Shown in pieces: positions 2,040 through 57,561 of a stretch of DNA of 64,000 nucleotides. The position numbers and the translations under genes were made by a program. Positions within the stretch are counted from its first letter, which is position 1. Every line of letters begins with the position of its first letter. The DNA lies in the IMG/VR virus record IMGVR_UViG_2875713109_000001. One strand, given 5' to 3'. The stretch comes from a virus (Duplodnaviria > Heunggongvirae > Uroviricota > Caudoviricetes). A model generated the notes under the pieces. The model saw only the letters and a program-made list of their open reading frames with translations. It ran no database searches and was not told the DNA's origin.

Positions 2040-2637
<598 letters not shown>

Positions 2638-2647
<10 letters not shown>

Positions 2648-2662
2648 TTGTCATTTGTGACA
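2638..2662 (-). promoter_or_regulatory. candidate Lpa-dependent late promoter
   Basis: Minus-strand read TGTCACAAATGACA-aactcg-TAGAAT; same core/spacing as other late-operon upstream regions in this window. Confidence 0.4.
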
Positions 2663-4032: not shown

Positions 4033-4049
4033 CCTGCTCTAATAAATTT
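4033..4049 (+). promoter_or_regulatory. C1 repressor operator-like site upstream of immI
   Basis: cctgctctaataaattt, 15/17 match to P1 C1 operator consensus ATTGCTCTAATAAATTT. Confidence 0.55.
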
Positions 4050-12953: not shown

Positions 12954-14660
12954 TTACTCAGAGTCACCGGCATCAATCATGTTACCGGTCAGGAAGTTAA
13001 TTCCGCCATTTTTGGCCATAGTCAGAGTTACACGCGTGAAGTAGTCAGCGCCGTTACGTGGGTGCATATCGTTGATAGCCGAACCCCACAGAGTGGTTCG
13101 GTTAACTAGTGCCGGGGTGGTCGGATGCTGGAATGGGACAGCCGGGACTGCATCACCAGTTACGAAGCCCGCTTTGCCCGGATTTTCATCACGGACGTAG
13201 CACAGCACATCCATTGGGCTGAACTGGATACCGTCGGCGGTCAGGTTCGTACAAATACCTTCTGGTACTTCGAACACTTTGACGTTGCCGAACAGATTGC
13301 CAATGTAGTGGACGTATGGGGTCTGGATGTAATCTTCTGCTGGCTGGAAGAAATCCTTCGGCAATTGTTTGAAGAAAGATGCCGCATCAGCACCGGCATA
13401 CATCCCCATCGCACCAGAAGATTTAATACGCTCAATAATACCGCGATATACCGTCTGGAATTTGCCTCGAATGATGGTTGCCCACACATCAAAGGACTGG
13501 TTAGCTGGCAGTGCAATATCAAAGGAGTCGGTCGCAAGAGTTCGCCAAATCATGATACGAAGACGAAGCATATCTTGCTCATGGGACAGGTATTCCTTCA
13601 GGGTGCGGAACTGTAGGGAGCCAAGATCCAGACCAAATTCACGCTGTGCTTCATACGCCGCCTGTACCGTGTGCTCAGCCGCGATGACGAACTGGTTTGG
13701 GAACAGGGTGTAACTCTTCATTTCGTGGTTGATAAGTGGGATCAGCTCAGGAGCTGCTTCTATATTGATCTCCGCCTCAATGGCGATCTCTGTACCTTTA
13801 TCTGGCGCTTTGGAGAACGACAGGACAATCTGACCAACGTTGTAATTCAAAGAGCAAGTAACAGTGATTTGTTCGCCTGCTTTGTTATTGAATGTGTGAA
13901 GCAGAGTGCCGGAGCCGTTATCAACAACAGACTTAATACGGTTAACGTAGATGTTTGTGCGACCTTTGCGAATCGGGACATTCTGACCTTCGACATCTTC
14001 CATCTTGAAGGTTGCAGTTTTGCTGGTGCCGTCGGAGCTTGCAACCAGCACATAGCGGCGGCGCAACTGGCTGTACACGCCAACGGATTGCATGTCCAGA
14101 ACATCACCAATAGCATAAGAGCCAAAAGAAGAACCCGCTACGTTAAAGATTTCATAGATTTCGGACTTGTCACGCGTAACCGGAATGAATGTACACGCAT
14201 CAGCGGTAGCTGCCCCCAACTGAACAGGCAGGATCATCGCCAGGAATAAAGGCAGACGCATAACCCCGTCAGAAACACTCATCATCTCTGCCGCGACTGA
14301 TTCCAGCATCGCTTTATTGGTGGCATCCATGCTATTGCGGGTGGACTCAATCAGGCAGTTTTCCAGCGTCTGGTGGCAGGAGGCCAGAATTTCCGGACGT
14401 GGCATAGATTTATGTGTTGCGGCGTAGTCAGCCAGTGCACTTGCCCACGCTGTAGCGATTTGAGCGGTGGCATTATCAGAGATACCCGCAAAAATTGGGT
14501 CTTTACGTGCAGCTTCAAGGATAGATGCGGCACGCGCGGCATCATCTTTAATGAATTGGTTATCAGTACCGAACTGCGCAGTGCTTGCCCAGCCAAGCAC
14601 AGCTTTAGAGCGTTTTGCGATATCTGCAATACGATTCTGGTATTCGCGTAAGTTACTCAA
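12954..14660 (-). CDS. major head protein (P1 gene 23-like)
   Basis: Large ORF adjacent to parS as P1 gene 23; no ATG near 5-prime end, TTG at 14660 has SD aaggaag; ORF-track start 14681 is also TTG. Confidence 0.55.
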   Translation of the reverse strand: MSNLREYQNRIADIAKRSKAVLGWASTAQFGTDNQFIKDDAARAASILEAARKDPIFAGISDNATAQIATAWASALADYAATHKSMPRPEILASCHQTLENCLIESTRNSMDATNKAMLESVAAEMMSVSDGVMRLPLFLAMILPVQLGAATADACTFIPVTRDKSEIYEIFNVAGSSFGSYAIGDVLDMQSVGVYSQLRRRYVLVASSDGTSKTATFKMEDVEGQNVPIRKGRTNIYVNRIKSVVDNGSGTLLHTFNNKAGEQITVTCSLNYNVGQIVLSFSKAPDKGTEIAIEAEINIEAAPELIPLINHEMKSYTLFPNQFVIAAEHTVQAAYEAQREFGLDLGSLQFRTLKEYLSHEQDMLRLRIMIWRTLATDSFDIALPANQSFDVWATIIRGKFQTVYRGIIERIKSSGAMGMYAGADAASFFKQLPKDFFQPAEDYIQTPYVHYIGNLFGNVKVFEVPEGICTNLTADGIQFSPMDVLCYVRDENPGKAGFVTGDAVPAVPFQHPTTPALVNRTTLWGSAINDMHPRNGADYFTRVTLTMAKNGGINFLTGNMIDAGDSE

Positions 14661-14711
14661 TTTACTCTTCCTTAAACACAAGGCACTTGTGTGAATCCCT
14701 TTTCGGAAGAG

Positions 14712-14740
14712 ATTTTATTGAAAGTCACTTGTTGACTTTC
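14712..14740 (-). promoter_or_regulatory. candidate Lpa-dependent late promoter of capsid operon
   Basis: Minus-strand read GAAAGTCAACAAGTGACTTTC-aa-TAAAAT: 9-bp inverted repeat plus -10 hexamer. Confidence 0.45.
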
Positions 14741-14799
14741 TCGCGAAAAGTAATTTTTTAAATTTTTTTGTGCGGGGAGGAGAACGAGTAATACAGGCG

Positions 14800-14890
14800 T
14801 TAAATTGTGGGAATTTCAGCCTGAAATCTTTTATGAATATTTATATATATCATGCACTTATACATGAAATCGGCGCGGGACATTTTAGGC
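14800..14890. other. parS: parS-like partition site
   Basis: Downstream of parB; inverted heptamers aatttcag/ctgaaat, AT-rich spacer, second tgaaatcggcgc copy; resembles P1 parS box architecture with different sequence. Confidence 0.5.
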
Positions 14891-14926
14891 AGAGGAGGAG
14901 GCTAAAACCACCTCCCACCAGCTGGA

Positions 14927-15892
14927 TTATTCCCCAGCAGACATTTTCCCAATGATTTTTTTTATTGCTTCGTCAATTTCAGTTTGCACTTCAGACGGGA
15001 GTCTGGAGAACTCGTAGGCGACTACCCGTTTTTTCGGATCAGACTTCTTTCTGGCGTATTGACGACGGTCAGAGAAGTCTCGCAGCTTCTCAACCACCAC
15101 AGATTTAACCGGCGCGGGCTTCAGGCTTTTGCTTTCCGCTTTGAAGATAGCCAGTATCTTCGCTTTATCCTCTTTCGCGCCCTCAGTCTCTGCAATTCGT
15201 TCGCGCACCGTATCAACCAGCTCTTCAATAGGTACGCTTTTAGCGTTGGCATCCTCGGAGATCTGGAGCAGTAACTGGTAATCTGGCAGGGCGAGATCGC
15301 TGGCAACAGGGAAGACAGCAATCATCTCATCCGGCACCGCTGCCGCCTGGAACGCGCGCGTAACTTTAGCCTTTGAAATGTTCTCAGCGCGGGCGATCTC
15401 TTCTTTGGTCATGCTCTTACCATACATAACCTCGAAGCGTTTACCCAGTTCGCGCAGGGTGTGTTCGCGGGCTGTCTGGATATCAATGGCCAGCTGGCGT
15501 GCATCCGCCAGGCTGATCTCATCTTTCGTCACCAGAATCTCAAATTTCGTTTCATTAAAGATACACGCAGCGCGGCGACGTGATCCGTCCAATACCTCAA
15601 TGCGCTCCCCAACCATACGACCGATAGCCGGGAAGAACTGTTGCAATTTAATGGTGCGGGAAATATCGCTTACCGACTCAGGGGTGAGCAGAGACTGATC
15701 GCGGCCGTTAACTGCCGGGTCAACGAACGTGCGCGACTCAATCTCACCACTCAGCACAACGGTAAGCAAAAATTTAGCCTGGCGGCCAGATTTTAGGGTA
15801 AAGGTTTTGGTGCCTTCACTGCCTTCAAGCATGCGAGCAAACTCGGAGCTATTCTTGCCCAGCACTCGTCCACGGGAAACTATTTTTTTCAT
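14927..15892 (-). CDS. parB: partition protein ParB
   Basis: 321 aa; conserved ParB-like block FVDPAVNGRDQSLLTPESV...QQFFPAIG; start overlaps parA stop. Confidence 0.8.
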   Translation of the reverse strand: MKKIVSRGRVLGKNSSEFARMLEGSEGTKTFTLKSGRQAKFLLTVVLSGEIESRTFVDPAVNGRDQSLLTPESVSDISRTIKLQQFFPAIGRMVGERIEVLDGSRRRAACIFNETKFEILVTKDEISLADARQLAIDIQTAREHTLRELGKRFEVMYGKSMTKEEIARAENISKAKVTRAFQAAAVPDEMIAVFPVASDLALPDYQLLLQISEDANAKSVPIEELVDTVRERIAETEGAKEDKAKILAIFKAESKSLKPAPVKSVVVEKLRDFSDRRQYARKKSDPKKRVVAYEFSRLPSEVQTEIDEAIKKIIGKMSAGE

Positions 15893-17100
15893 GCCGCCTC
15901 ACCCCTAACAAACTCAATTCGATCAAACACAGCCTTAGTGAAACGCTCGGCCTCGGTTCGTGCCTTCTTCAGCGCCTCTGCGCTGCCTGGATACGATTGC
16001 GGGTTGGCACTGATTACGGTGTCGAAAGACTCGCCGCATCGCTCAAATCCATCCAGACGAGGCAGAGAAGAGTCCAGAATGTTGCTGGCGTAAACCTCAC
16101 GCGCAAGGCTGTGTGATGTCTCGTGATCGCGCTTGCCGGTCATCTTCGACATAAAACCAATGCTGGCGCTTAAACGCGGTTCTACGCCTTCCTCCTCCAG
16201 TTGCTCCAGCATTTCTGGCAGACGGGTGAGATATTTCAGTGTTGAGTGGAAGTCAACCTGGGCTGGTGGGGTAGGGGTAAGCAGCAAATCGCTGGCCGCC
16301 AGACCGTTGAGCAGGAACGGATCCAGGTGTGGACCGGTATCAATAAAGATAAAGTCATAATCATCCGCAACACGATCAATGATATTGCGTCGAAGGATTT
16401 CGTACTGATTTTGTCCGGGAAGATGCTCTTCAACCAGCTCTTTCCATTGGCTGGCAACAAAGCCATCGTCGATAGAGGCTGGAATCACGTCTACGCCAGG
16501 AACGATGGTCGGACGAATCACCTCTTTGCGTAGCGTCTCCGCGTCCAGGTCGTTCAGCATCGCCTGCGCAGCGGTTTCCAGGATGGAACCAATACTGTGA
16601 GTATGGTCGAGGAACATTGTGCTGGATGCCTGAGGGTCAAGGTCAATTACCAGAATACGCAGATCGTGACGCAGTAAATCCTGATGCACACGCAGAGCGT
16701 GCGCCAACGTGACTGTGGAAACCGTTTTGGATACGCCACCCTTCAGGTTTACGACAAAAATAACGTAAGGCGATTTGTGAATGTCGCGATATTTTGGGAT
16801 CTTACGGTGGGCATAGATATCAATGACGTTCTGGATGGTCAGCGCGTACTGTTCAACGTTACCGACCTGTTTCTTGTTGAACTGGTACCCATTATCTTCC
16901 ATCTCTTTGATGGCCTGCTCCACAATGCGGCGGCTCAGCTTCGGCAACTTTGCCACAGCGTTACGAGTGAACGTCTGATAATACTCGGTCTGATTGAACT
17001 CTTTGCGCTGATCTTCAATATCCTGACTCATGGCCTTAAGTAATGCGCTTGCACGAAGAGCTATGGTGCCGACACCGCCGTAATCGCGTTTCATCATCAT
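15889..17100 (-). CDS. parA: partition ATPase ParA
   Basis: 403 aa; deviant Walker A KGGVSKT and ParA blocks VIDLDPQ, LPRLDGFERCGESFDTVISANP; divergent from P1 ParA as I recall it. Confidence 0.9.
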   Translation of the reverse strand: MMMKRDYGGVGTIALRASALLKAMSQDIEDQRKEFNQTEYYQTFTRNAVAKLPKLSRRIVEQAIKEMEDNGYQFNKKQVGNVEQYALTIQNVIDIYAHRKIPKYRDIHKSPYVIFVVNLKGGVSKTVSTVTLAHALRVHQDLLRHDLRILVIDLDPQASSTMFLDHTHSIGSILETAAQAMLNDLDAETLRKEVIRPTIVPGVDVIPASIDDGFVASQWKELVEEHLPGQNQYEILRRNIIDRVADDYDFIFIDTGPHLDPFLLNGLAASDLLLTPTPPAQVDFHSTLKYLTRLPEMLEQLEEEGVEPRLSASIGFMSKMTGKRDHETSHSLAREVYASNILDSSLPRLDGFERCGESFDTVISANPQSYPGSAEALKKARTEAERFTKAVFDRIEFVRGEAA

Positions 17101-19407: not shown

Positions 19408-19663
19408 TTTTCACTTCCTGGCTGTGAAAATGTTGCTCTGCTTTGTTCATCGTCTCAATGGTCTGGTTAAGATCCATTATTGACTTATCACGTTCCTTAA
19501 CAGCCTGATCAAGACTGCCAATTTTCTCCATGGCTTGCTTTAGCTGATGACGTTCCCATGCAAACCCAGCACCAACAAGTGTGCAAATCAGAACAAGAAC
19601 ACCAGTAGCAGCAAGTTTCTCCTTCAAAGACAAAGCTGTTTTTAACGTAGAAAAGAATGACAT
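19241..19663 (-). CDS. i-spanin-like protein (Rz-like)
   Basis: ATG at 19663 with SD aggagga; N-terminal TM helix LAATGVLVLICTLVGAGFAW then coiled-coil periplasmic domain; ORF-track start 19690 is TTG. Confidence 0.5.
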   Translation of the reverse strand: MSFFSTLKTALSLKEKLAATGVLVLICTLVGAGFAWERHQLKQAMEKIGSLDQAVKERDKSIMDLNQTIETMNKAEQHFHSQEVKNESEQAKYADRQMERKAEVQKQLVAAGNVRQRIPADTQRLLRQSITEFNADADKG

Positions 19664-19702
19664 GTCTTCCTCCTGAAGAAAAATTATCAATGAAGTCCTT
19701 TG

Positions 19703-46450: not shown

Positions 46451-47494
46451 GTGAAAGCCGTAATTACTCCCTTTGTACAAAAAGAGCTTGGCGTCGCCAC
46501 ATTCAAAGTGGATCAGGAAGTCAGAAAGCTGGTGGAGGCTGGCCGTAAATTTATTATGGAGCCGGTGCCGCGTGAGTTAATCGAGCACATGGACGACGGC
46601 CTCGTTGTTTCCGAGCAAACTATGGCAACAAATGAGGCGTTGCAGCCGTTTTTTAACAGCGATGAACTGTTTCGCCGTATTGGTGGAATTGACGCGCTGG
46701 TGGCGTGGTTGCGCAGGAAAGAGGGGCAATGCCAGGCCGCAGATCGTAGCTGGTGTGACAACCATATTGTCCACGCTGAACGAGACAACAGCGCGGTGTT
46801 GTTGTGCTGGCATCACGATAATCATTACCGGATGCGTGGTTTTAATGAGCTGAAAGAAACGCTGCATAATAATCGCGTTAACTGGATACTGGATGTCGCT
46901 CGTCAGGAAATGGGCCTTTCTGATGGTCATGATTTAAGTATTCAGGAGCTGTGCTGGTGGGCTTTCATGCGCAACATGATCCACCTCATGCCGGAAGAAG
47001 TCTGCCGTATATCAATAAATAAGGTGAGGGCTGCAACGCAGGATAGCGGACCTCTGAAAGAGGCGGATATTCGCCCGTATGACGATCGCGCTACAGCATA
47101 TGTTCAGATGATGGAAGAACGCGCCGCGCCGATGCGTGCAAAAGTATGCCCTGTGGATGTTGACTCCGACCCTGGCATGGCGCATTTCAAAATACCAAAA
47201 CTGCAATCGCTAAAATTACCTGAGTACATGGACTTTGTTGCTTCCCGTCCATGCTGTGGGTGTGGAGCTGCGGGAGCTGGCGCTCACATTACGCCTTATA
47301 TCGTTCGTCATAGTCGATTATGCGCGCATGACATTTACGCAATTCCTCTGTGCCAGTCATGCCAGCGTGATATTGAGCGTGACCGCGATAATTGGGAGAA
47401 GACGCACGGCAGGCTGGCGATGCATCAACGATTGTTCTTTGATTACGCGCTTGGAGTCGGCGTTATCACAAGTCACTCGTCGAGCGTTAGATAA
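46451..47494 (+). CDS. hypothetical Cys/His-rich protein
   Basis: 347 aa, GTG start; CCGCG and C..C..C clusters near C-terminus. Confidence 0.45.
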
Positions 47495-47495
47495 A

Positions 47496-47512
47496 ATTGC
47501 TCTAATGTATTG
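47496..47512 (+). promoter_or_regulatory. C1 operator-like site upstream of lpa
   Basis: attgctctaatgtattg, 14/17. Confidence 0.5.
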
Positions 47513-47582: not shown

Positions 47583-48035
47583 ATGTTACTTAACTGGCAG
47601 GGACGCCACTTCATGGAAATAAATCACTCACGAATTACATCGTATGAGATTGCGGATTACATGATCCGCACTAAATCTCTTCTATCAGCGAAAGAACTCG
47701 CAGCAATCCTTGAAAAGGAATACCCGCATCTGGATGTCGATAAGCGCGATGTTTATCTGCGCTTAAAGGCTATCGCTGTGTCTAAGTATTCGTCTGTTTT
47801 GATTGATGACAGTACACGCCCACGTAGATTTCAGATCCACTCTCTGAATCCTGAATTCTTTCGCCGCAGCCGCGCTCCGCGCCGGTTTGATGAAAAACTC
47901 CAGAACGAACTCTATATGACGCAGGACGAAAAGGAACGCCGGGAGCACCAGCCTTGGGTAATGGCGCGTCAACTTTTCAATAAGGTGGCCCGTCAGCACC
48001 GTCATTACGGTAATGCCACATCCGCACGTATCTGA
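47583..48035 (+). CDS. lpa: late promoter activator Lpa-like
   Basis: 150-aa ORF preceded by C1 operator and directly upstream of pacA, as P1 lpa; SD aggtga. Confidence 0.5.
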   Translation: MLLNWQGRHFMEINHSRITSYEIADYMIRTKSLLSAKELAAILEKEYPHLDVDKRDVYLRLKAIAVSKYSSVLIDDSTRPRRFQIHSLNPEFFRRSRAPRRFDEKLQNELYMTQDEKERREHQPWVMARQLFNKVARQHRHYGNATSARI

Positions 48036-48064: not shown

Positions 48065-48085
48065 ACATGTGACTTTCGTTACCCT
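48065..48085 (+). promoter_or_regulatory. candidate late promoter upstream of pacA (weak -10)
   Basis: ACATGTGAC-tttcgt-TACCCT: core matches other late-promoter candidates, -10 poor. Confidence 0.35.
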
Positions 48086-56169: not shown

Positions 56170-56730
56170 ATGAAAACAATCGAACAAAAAATTGAACAGT
56201 GCCGCAAGTGGCAGAAGGCAGCCAGAGAACGAGCGATCGCTCGGCAACGGGAGAAGTTGGCTGATCCGGTCTGGCGAGAATCTCAATATCAGAAAATGCG
56301 GAATACTATCGATCGCCGTATCGCTAAACAGAAAGAGCGCCCACCAGCCAGCAAAACGCGGAAAAGCGCGGTAAAAATAAAATCTCGTGACTTGAAGGGA
56401 CGAACACCGACGGCGGAGGAACGGCGCATAGCCAATGCTCTTGGCGCTCTCCCCTGCATTGCCTGCTATATGCATGAAGTAATATCTGAAGAGGTGTCTC
56501 TGCACCATATCTCCGGTCGTACCGCGCCTGGTTGTCACAAAAAGCAATTGCCACTTTGTAGATGGCACCACCAGCATGCAGCACCGGCTGAAGTAAGAGA
56601 AAAATACCCCTGGCTGGTCCCTGTTCATGCCGATGGTGTGGTTGGAGGCAAGAAAGAATTCACCTTGCTGAACAAGTCAGAGATGGAGTTGCTGGCTGAC
56701 GCCTATGAAATGGCAAACATCATGCACTAA
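56170..56730 (+). CDS. ref: Ref recombination enhancement HNH endonuclease
   Basis: 186 aa; Cys/His HNH-like cluster CIACYMHEV...HHISG...CRWHHQH; position after cre as in P1. Confidence 0.85.
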   Translation: MKTIEQKIEQCRKWQKAARERAIARQREKLADPVWRESQYQKMRNTIDRRIAKQKERPPASKTRKSAVKIKSRDLKGRTPTAEERRIANALGALPCIACYMHEVISEEVSLHHISGRTAPGCHKKQLPLCRWHHQHAAPAEVREKYPWLVPVHADGVVGGKKEFTLLNKSEMELLADAYEMANIMH

Positions 56731-56768
56731 TAAATATATTATTTTTAATCTTAAATGATTGACAACTG

Positions 56769-56789
56769 ACAAGTGACTTGAGTCAGAAT
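56769..56789 (+). promoter_or_regulatory. candidate Lpa-dependent late promoter upstream of mat
   Basis: ACAAGTGAC-ttgagt-CAGAAT, 20 nt upstream of ATG 56809. Confidence 0.4.
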
Positions 56790-56808: not shown

Positions 56809-57561
56809 ATGGATCCCTTTTCAAATATTCCATGGACGGCACAGTCTGAGTACCGGGCGCTACCTTCTGTTGTATTGCTAAGCCGCCGCTGGTGGCTTTT
56901 CTTTTTTGTAGGGGGCGCTATGGATAAGAAAATATGCGTTGTTTCAATGAGCGTCGGCAAACCGGCGTCAATGACTGCTGCATGGATCAACAATGAGCTG
57001 ATAATGGCTGAGCGGACCAGCTACCCTGAACGCCGCCGCGATATGGAACTCCAGCTGCTGCGCGAATTGCGAGAAAAAGAGGAAAAGGGTTTTATCGTGC
57101 TGGTGGAAGAGGAAAACAGCTTTATTACCGGTCGAGTTGGCCAGCGTGTAAGGTTGCGTGATCCCTTCATGAACGGTAGACCGGTACTGATTGAAGCAAT
57201 GCAGATTTACAAGGAATTGGAACGCCAGAAAGCGATCAAGTTACCGCGCAAGGAATCCGGCAAATACATCCTCCACCAAAGCATCTTCGATTCCGAACAT
57301 GACAAAAAAGGCGATGAATTTTTCAACATCAACTGGAGCGAAATAACGACAGAGCACGTTCTGACGTTGTTATGCTGCTTCGCAACGGAATACAACAACG
57401 TTGCAAACTCCGACTACATCAGGGCAATGGCTGGAGAAGTTGAGCCACGCCAGGAACCATCGTTACTAAGCCCACTGATTAACATAATTCGCGGCACACA
57501 GAGACTTGCGGAAAAAAGCGTTCCACATGGAATCTTAACTGGAAAGGGAAACTATTTTTAA
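56809..57561 (+). CDS. mat: Mat-like maturation control protein (start uncertain, alternative ATG 56920 with better SD)
   Basis: ORF between ref and res as P1 mat; N-terminal 37 aa hydrophobic and unusual. Confidence 0.5.
   Translation: MDPFSNIPWTAQSEYRALPSVVLLSRRWWLFFFVGGAMDKKICVVSMSVGKPASMTAAWINNELIMAERTSYPERRRDMELQLLRELREKEEKGFIVLVEEENSFITGRVGQRVRLRDPFMNGRPVLIEAMQIYKELERQKAIKLPRKESGKYILHQSIFDSEHDKKGDEFFNINWSEITTEHVLTLLCCFATEYNNVANSDYIRAMAGEVEPRQEPSLLSPLINIIRGTQRLAEKSVPHGILTGKGNYF

Follow-up and report, generated by a model that had tools for sequence, protein, structure and literature searches.

Late-promoter-like elements recur along the 64,000-nt stretch of a P1/P7-like phage-plasmid analysed here (hereafter, the window), and their shared composite motif very probably represents the Lpa-dependent late-promoter class of P1 and its relatives. 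Of the six sites named in the original prediction, five (2638, 14712, 34580, 48065 and 56769) are, by sequence comparison, already known P1/P7 late promoters. The sixth, upstream of upfC, and a further site upstream of ppfA are the only new predictions. From comparative sequence data, we place at roughly even the chance that P1-like phage-plasmids carry two further Lpa-dependent late promoters, one before upfC and one before ppfA/mlp, outside the published set of 11. That at least one of the two candidates is functional is somewhat likelier than that both are, and falls a little to the probable side.

The window and its late promoter activator

Sequence alignment identified the window as a P1/P7-like phage-plasmid (Punavirus), with 95-99% identity to P7, P1 and RCS47. 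Positions 1-25000 aligned to P7 over 98% of their length at 96.7% identity, and the segment from 13000 to 17000, spanning gene 23, parS, parB and parA, is 95% identical to P7 (AF503408). Positions 25001-50000 share 98.6% identity with RCS47 and about 97-98% with P1 and P7, and a 401-bp test segment of the window is 100% identical to the Escherichia coli plasmid NZ_AP027786.1. Annotated late promoters were taken from the feature tables of the P1 (NC_005856) and P7 (AF503408) GenBank records, and the functions of downstream genes from P1/P7 annotation, PHROGs and Pfam.

The gene for the late promoter activator, lpa (gene 10; 47583-48035, plus strand), is intact in the window. Its product matches the BPP1_LPA family (PF25716, E = 3e-57) and PHROG 1704 and shows, by tblastn, 100% identity with the Lpa proteins of P1 and P7; a structure search returned no solved structure matching Lpa. 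PMC10695390 gives 11 late promoters as the published P1 set and assigns their box to Lpa, which is described as a sequence-specific DNA-binding activator working with E. coli SspA (PMC1891329, citing Hansen et al. 2003). According to these two sources, P1 late transcription requires Lpa as well as the host protein SspA, and its start lies about 7 nt past the -10 element (PMC10695390, PMC1891329).

In the established model, the host sigma-70 RNA polymerase is unable to use promoters of this class unaided. In this model, Lpa (gp10, from 47583-48035), held off in the prophage by the C1 repressor, binds the box and, together with the RNA-polymerase-associated host protein SspA, brings about initiation about 7 nt downstream of the -10 element. 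Promoters of this class drive the late genes for virion assembly, DNA packaging and lysis. The primary work on P1 late promoters and Lpa is reportedly that of Guidolin et al. 1989, Lehnherr et al. 1991 and 1992, Hansen et al. 2003 and Lobocka et al. 2004.

Architecture of the promoter class

In the P1 and P7 records, the annotated element consists of a 9-bp palindrome, AAGTGACTT (the '-22 region'), followed by 4 bp and a -10 hexamer. The same 4-bp spacing separates box and -10 at all listed sites in the window, with the box centred near -22. The core on which the original prediction was built, ACAAGTGAC, is this same element, but its frame is shifted two bases 5' of the canonical box, thereby including an AC dinucleotide that precedes the box in 8 of the 11 annotated promoters.

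The -10 hexamers at the six listed sites (TAGAAT, TAAAAT, TAAAAT, TAGAAT, TACCCT and CAGAAT) are of the TANNNT type, and the P7 annotation carries identical hexamers for LPmat (CAGAAT) and for LPpac, whose TACCCT at 48065 had rightly been flagged as a poor -10. A usable -35 was found at none of the sites: with spacers of 16-18 bp, TTGACA was matched at best in 0-3 of its 6 positions. All six are on the correct strand and lie ahead of pmgC/tubA, gene 23, gene 26, pacA, mat and upfC, with 19-51 nt between the -10 and the first start codon.

The core had also been described as often lying within an inverted repeat. At 14712 and 56769, the box AAGTGACTT is a perfect 4+1+4 palindrome, and at the former site a larger inverted repeat (14720-14740; GAAAGTCA / TGACTTTC, with 8-bp arms 5 nt apart) overlaps the box, which is why the coordinates first given for this site extend to 14740. 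The other four listed sites, however, have only 1-3 of 4 symmetric pairs. Their boxes are the variants ATGTGACTT at 48065 (one change), AAATGACTA at 34580, AAATGACAA at 2638 and AAGTAACCT at 20817, the last of which fits the canonical box only in part. Those at 34580 and 2638 match the annotated LP26 and LPsit boxes, the latter with one base changed.

Motif enrichment and conservation

The exact composite motif, ACAARTGAC-N6-TARAAT, occurs three times in the window (2638, 14712 and 34580, all on the minus strand) versus 0.00 expected from 100 dinucleotide shuffles. Up to two mismatches allowed, there are six matches versus 0.65 expected, and none of the shuffles reached six; the composite motif does recur as proposed. 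This relaxed scan adds 20817 (minus), 56769 (plus) and 32875 (minus), the last absent from the original list. The remaining listed site, 48065 (plus), reads ACATGTGAC-N6-TACCCT and has four mismatches to the motif. Each of the six listed sites was found in the window sequence at the position and on the strand first assigned to it.

Weight matrices gave a similar picture. An outside-only matrix was trained on P7 LPpro, LPlyz, LPdar and LPs, none of which lies inside the window, and it returned five matches of at least 16 bits versus 0.13 expected. Its best six matches in the window were 14712, 48065, 32875, 56769, 34580 and 20817, so that five of the six listed sites were recovered from independent training sequences; LPsit (2638) scored 8.9 bits and ranked 21. 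With a nine-site matrix, six matches reached at least 18 bits versus 0.03 expected in the window.

Alternatively, AT-rich, -10-like sequence might simply recur by chance, its copies sharing no function, and the 9-mer core by itself, with one mismatch allowed, is indeed unenriched in the window (35 observed versus 30 expected). The signal therefore resides in box, spacer and -10 jointly, and this composite is strongly enriched over shuffles and precedes late operons. It is also kept in the diverged Cronobacter phage JK004, whose Lpa is 67% identical to that of P1 and whose orthologous proteins are mostly 59-84% identical: JK004 carries the motif at nine positional orthologs (LP23, LPmat, LPs, LPpro, LPpac, LP26, LPlyz, LPsit and LPdar). 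The shuffle statistics and this orthologous conservation refute chance recurrence, which we regard as wildly improbable.

Binding of the box by a regulator other than Lpa, for example the C1 repressor or a host factor, also has to be weighed, given that the C1 operators O26, Op(mat) and Odmt lie close to several late promoters. The C1 consensus ATTGCTCTAATAAATTT has 15 matches in the window at up to three mismatches versus 0.37 expected (for example, at 4033, 5695, 20865, 24387, 34623, 40389 and 53934). That consensus differs from the box, however, and none of the 15 matches overlaps one; published work assigns the box to Lpa (PMC10695390, PMC1891329). We thus consider another regulator very unlikely and continue to read the box as a probable Lpa site.

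Late promoters shared with P1 and P7

For five of the six sites, the homologous position in P1 or P7 bears an annotated late promoter complete with '-22 region' and -10 element. P7 has LPsit, LP23, LPpac and LPmat; P1 shares the first two of these and alone has LP26. The Lpa-dependent P1 architecture on which the original prediction drew is therefore the annotated one at these five. The window is identical to the annotated sequences at LP23, LPpac and LPmat and differs by one base each at LPsit and LP26. We saw nothing that speaks against any of the five, although LP23 and LPpac bear only the label 'predicted' in the records. Compared with the P1/P7 set (LPs/Ps, LPdar, LPlyz, LPpro, LPsit, LP23, LP26, LPpmgL, LPdmt, LPpac and LPmat), the window has the same box near -22, the 4-bp gap, the -10 and no -35, its five annotated sites occupy the same genomic positions, and its lpa gene is identical. 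In contrast, the sites upstream of upfC and ppfA are absent from the published 11 and have the variant boxes AAGTAACCT and AAAGGACTT.

LP23 (14712-14732, minus strand; ACAAGTGACTTTCAATAAAAT) has the top matrix score and matches the pattern exactly, with the box AAGTGACTT at 14730-14722 and the -10 TAAAAT at 14717-14712; it is identical to the annotated P7/P1 site. It drives gene 23 (major capsid; start codon at 14660, after a gap of 51 nt), which is followed by the sheath gene 22, and transcription is predicted to start near 14705. The element at 14712-14740, which parS adjoins, is therefore the promoter of the capsid/sheath operon and not of the spanin/PAAR operon.

LPsit (2638-2658, minus strand; ACAAATGACAACTCGTAGAAT) precedes the tail-tube/baseplate operon pmgC(tubA)...sit, 31 nt before the start codon at 2606; it has homologues in P7 and P1 and is one base off the P7 sequence. 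On reading the sequence, we also noted a 12-bp inverted repeat at 2613-2647 (minus strand; CTCGTAGAATCT ... AGATTCTACGAG, 11-nt loop) that takes in the LPsit -10, and P7 and the window differ downstream of that -10.

LP26 (34580-34600, minus strand; ACAAATGACTAGCGATAGAAT), the homologue of P1 LP26 and an exact pattern match, precedes the baseplate/tail operon 26-25-7-24, with a start codon at 34550 and a gap of 29 nt. The C1 operator O26 (formerly Op82; 34623-34639, minus strand; ATTGCACTAATAATTTT) has two mismatches to the C1 consensus and a counterpart, P1 O26, at the homologous position, so the 34550 cluster has both the late promoter and the C1 operator attributed to it. A second promoter, LPpmgL (34590-34608, plus strand; TAGTCATTT-GTTG-AATATT), is annotated in P1 and has an identical sequence in the window. 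LPpmgL and LP26 use one common 9-bp box in opposite directions, and a single box for two divergent promoters fits its rough palindromy.

On the plus strand, LPpac (48065-48085; ACATGTGACTTTCGTTACCCT), with the weak -10 TACCCT, precedes the terminase genes pacA/pacB by 35 nt (pacA start, 48121) and is identical to the P7 'predicted late promoter LPpac'. LPmat (56769-56789; ACAAGTGACTTGAGTCAGAAT), identical to P7 LPmat, lies 19 nt before the start of mat (particle maturation) at 56809, and a C1 operator-like sequence, Op(mat) by position, is found nearby at about 56721-56737. Late control of mat and pacA, as originally proposed, is therefore established annotation, given that both promoters are annotated in P7.

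Additional motif matches

The original list, although accurate in its coordinates, was incomplete: besides LPpmgL, it missed the ppfA candidate on the minus strand (below) and a weak equivalent of LPdam2/LPdmt at 23366-23384 (plus strand). The latter lies inside a methyltransferase gene, where P7 has a 'predicted late promoter'; its box, AAGTTAGTT, is degenerate relative to the P7 box, AAGTTTCTT, and it scores 6.3 bits.

The match at 32875-32895 (minus strand; ACAAGTGACTGGTGATAACCT) reached 21.4 bits versus 0.003 expected per window at such a score. It sits in the 5' end of tail gene 7, across the codons for QQVTGDNL, and is identical in P1 and P7. JK004 partly keeps it (ACAAATGACCGGTGATACGCT), with changes that preserve ACAAATGAC and the TANNNT pattern. 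This conservation is ambiguous, since selection on the encoded peptide Q(V/M)TGD(N/T)L could account for it; the match may mark an internal late promoter or a site bound by Lpa, or may be a by-product of coding constraint.

On the strand opposite lpa, at the 3' end of a pdcB-like ORF, a box-like sequence at 47460-47480 (minus strand; ACGAGTGACTTGTGATAACGC) scored 12.4 bits; it lies just ahead of a C1 operator-like site at 47496-47512. Two extra motif matches were seen in JK004, at 83283-83303 (plus strand), upstream of its ssb ortholog, and at 69127-69147 (minus strand), upstream of a small gene that weakly matches hdmA (29 aa). Neither position has an annotated late promoter in P7.

A candidate late promoter upstream of upfC

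The candidate upstream of upfC occupies 20817-20837 on the minus strand (ACAAGTAACCTAAGTTAAAAT), 32 nt before the upfC GTG start at 20784, and would initiate transcription near 20810. The genes downstream are, in order, upfC (PAAR), upfB, ppfA/mlp (spanins) and upfA: in Pfam and PHROG comparisons, UpfC matched the PAAR motif, and Rz-like spanin families were matched by ppfA and mlp. PMC9025707 takes ppfA and mlp as the P1 spanins. The content expected of a spanin/PAAR operon is thus present, but the P1 and P7 records annotate no late promoter upstream of upfC, and the one suggested here has moderate support, from comparative sequence data.

By the nine-site matrix, the candidate scores 15.8 bits, at which 0.15 chance matches per window are expected, and its box is the weakest among the six listed sites. 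In this box, AAGTAACCT, an A replaces the second G of the core as first defined, and the P1 version, ACAAATAAT, is more degenerate still. The two middle bases of the box drift across 74 readable P1-group relatives (GT, AT, AC, TT and TA), and the flanks and -10 are fixed; such drift would be unexpected if Lpa needed these bases to bind. An alignment of the upfC-uhr intergenic region from the window, P1, P7 and JK004 showed the C1 operator to be conserved and identity in the candidate box to be about equal to that of its flanks. About 30 nt separate the candidate from the operator Odmt, farther upstream at 20865-20881.

A sigma-70 promoter was considered for the upfC site and ruled out, as there is no -35 at 16-18 bp in the window and none was apparent by eye in JK004.

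We compared the candidate sites across seven lineages: the P1 group, JK004, a Pantoea plasmid and four IMG/VR contigs (L097, L098, L100 and L103). UpfB identity in this comparison is 47-60%. The Pantoea plasmid was the one usefully distant locus of four found in a profile search of genome contigs with the UpfB alignment. The 80 IMG/VR relatives of UpfC are all 97-99% identical at the protein level, and they show drift within the P1 group and not independent lineages. At the upfC position, AC-N-A-R-T-R-AC followed by 6 nt and a -10-like hexamer occurs in six of the seven lineages (P1 group, JK004, Pantoea plasmid, L097, L098 and L103); of these, the Pantoea plasmid, L097 and L098 retain the canonical-core GAC. 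In L100, the site at this position ranks only fourth (AGTAATGAC, 3.7 bits).

A candidate late promoter upstream of ppfA

The second candidate lies at 19683-19703 on the minus strand (ACAAAGGACTTCATTGATAAT), between the upfB stop codon and the ATG of ppfA (Rz-like spanin) at 19663. It is unannotated, and its transcription start is predicted near 19676. In the window, its box is AAAGGACTT and its score by the nine-site matrix is only 9.1 bits, at which 5.6 chance matches per window are expected. It is conserved better than the upfC candidate, the 21-mer being identical in 70 of 71 P1-group relatives. At the orthologous positions of the six other lineages, the boxes are mostly near-canonical (JK004, ACAAATGACCTGGCGGAAAAT; L103, AGAAGTGACTTTCCAGAGAAT; L098, ACATATGACTTGTCAGAAAAT; L100, ACAAATGACCTGAAAGAGAAT), with a less canonical version in the Pantoea plasmid (ACAAAGCACTTTGCCCATAAT), and the spacer and leader sequences diverge among lineages.

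Expression data touch on this site as well. In P1vir RNA-seq, upfB and ppfA read 0 at 10 min and about 3-4 (log2 fold change) at 20 min; counts were low, and the differences were not significant. Known late genes share this timing, and the early neighbour uhr was at 6.9 at 10 min. With few late-gene reads at 20 min, the data set is suggestive at most.

It is possible, if on the doubtful side, that only the five annotated sites are real. Both candidates would then be Lpa-independent, the PAAR/spanin genes would be transcribed from weak sigma-70 promoters, such as the P1ppfA and P2ppfA predicted in the P1 record, or from a -10-only constitutive promoter, and the likeness to the box would be an ancestral residue or chance. 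Such a view accommodates the degenerate upfC box of the P1 group, with its drifting centre, and the two scores, neither of which is decisive by itself. It also agrees with the curation of P1, whose record has only predicted sigma-70 promoters around ppfA and no late promoter in the region, and with a CRISPRi screen that scores the PAAR/spanin genes as non-essential (PMC10695390). What it does not readily accommodate is the comparative evidence. When both strands of the 2.1-kb segment from upfC to mlp were scanned, the ppfA site was among the top two matrix matches in seven of seven lineages and the upfC site in six of seven, and near-canonical boxes (ACAAATGAC, AAGTGACTT and ACATATGAC) occur in other lineages. 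The candidates also have no -35 at a usable spacing, and upfB and ppfA share, at low counts, the timing of late genes.

On this balance, we infer that the sites upstream of upfC and ppfA are weaker or variant members of the P1 late-promoter class. Such membership would bring the PAAR spike-tip gene into the late regulon, together with the otherwise unlinked spanin genes.

Relation to other late promoters

Activator-dependent or -10-only late promoters are known from several other phages. Those of P2/P4 and 186, served by the Ogr/Delta/B zinc-finger activators, resemble the class described here in their poor or absent -35, small phage activator, upstream dyad and use of the host sigma-70 polymerase. 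They differ in that the dyad is TGT-N12-ACA near -55, the activator touches the alpha subunit of the polymerase and the proteins are unrelated to Lpa; we know of no SspA involvement in these systems. The Mu late promoters (Plys, PI, PP and Pmom), which depend on the C protein, likewise have a -10, a weak -35 and an activator bound to a dyad overlapping the -35 region, but the C site lies near -43.5 and has another sequence, and C is unrelated to Lpa. T4 late promoters (TATAAATA) share the -10-only architecture without a -35, but they rely on a phage sigma factor (gp55 + gp33) coupled to the sliding clamp and have no upstream activator box.

Implications for the P1 late programme

The window runs the standard P1 late programme, and annotation can be transferred safely from P1 and P7 for the five annotated sites. 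For the PAAR/spanin operon, which has no annotated late promoter, the two conserved late-promoter-like elements offer a testable refinement of the P1 transcription map. If this refinement is true, the spanins, whose genes are separate from the rest of the P1 lysis genes, would join the late regulon through a promoter of their own, and the timing of these physically unlinked genes alongside holin and endolysin expression would be explained.
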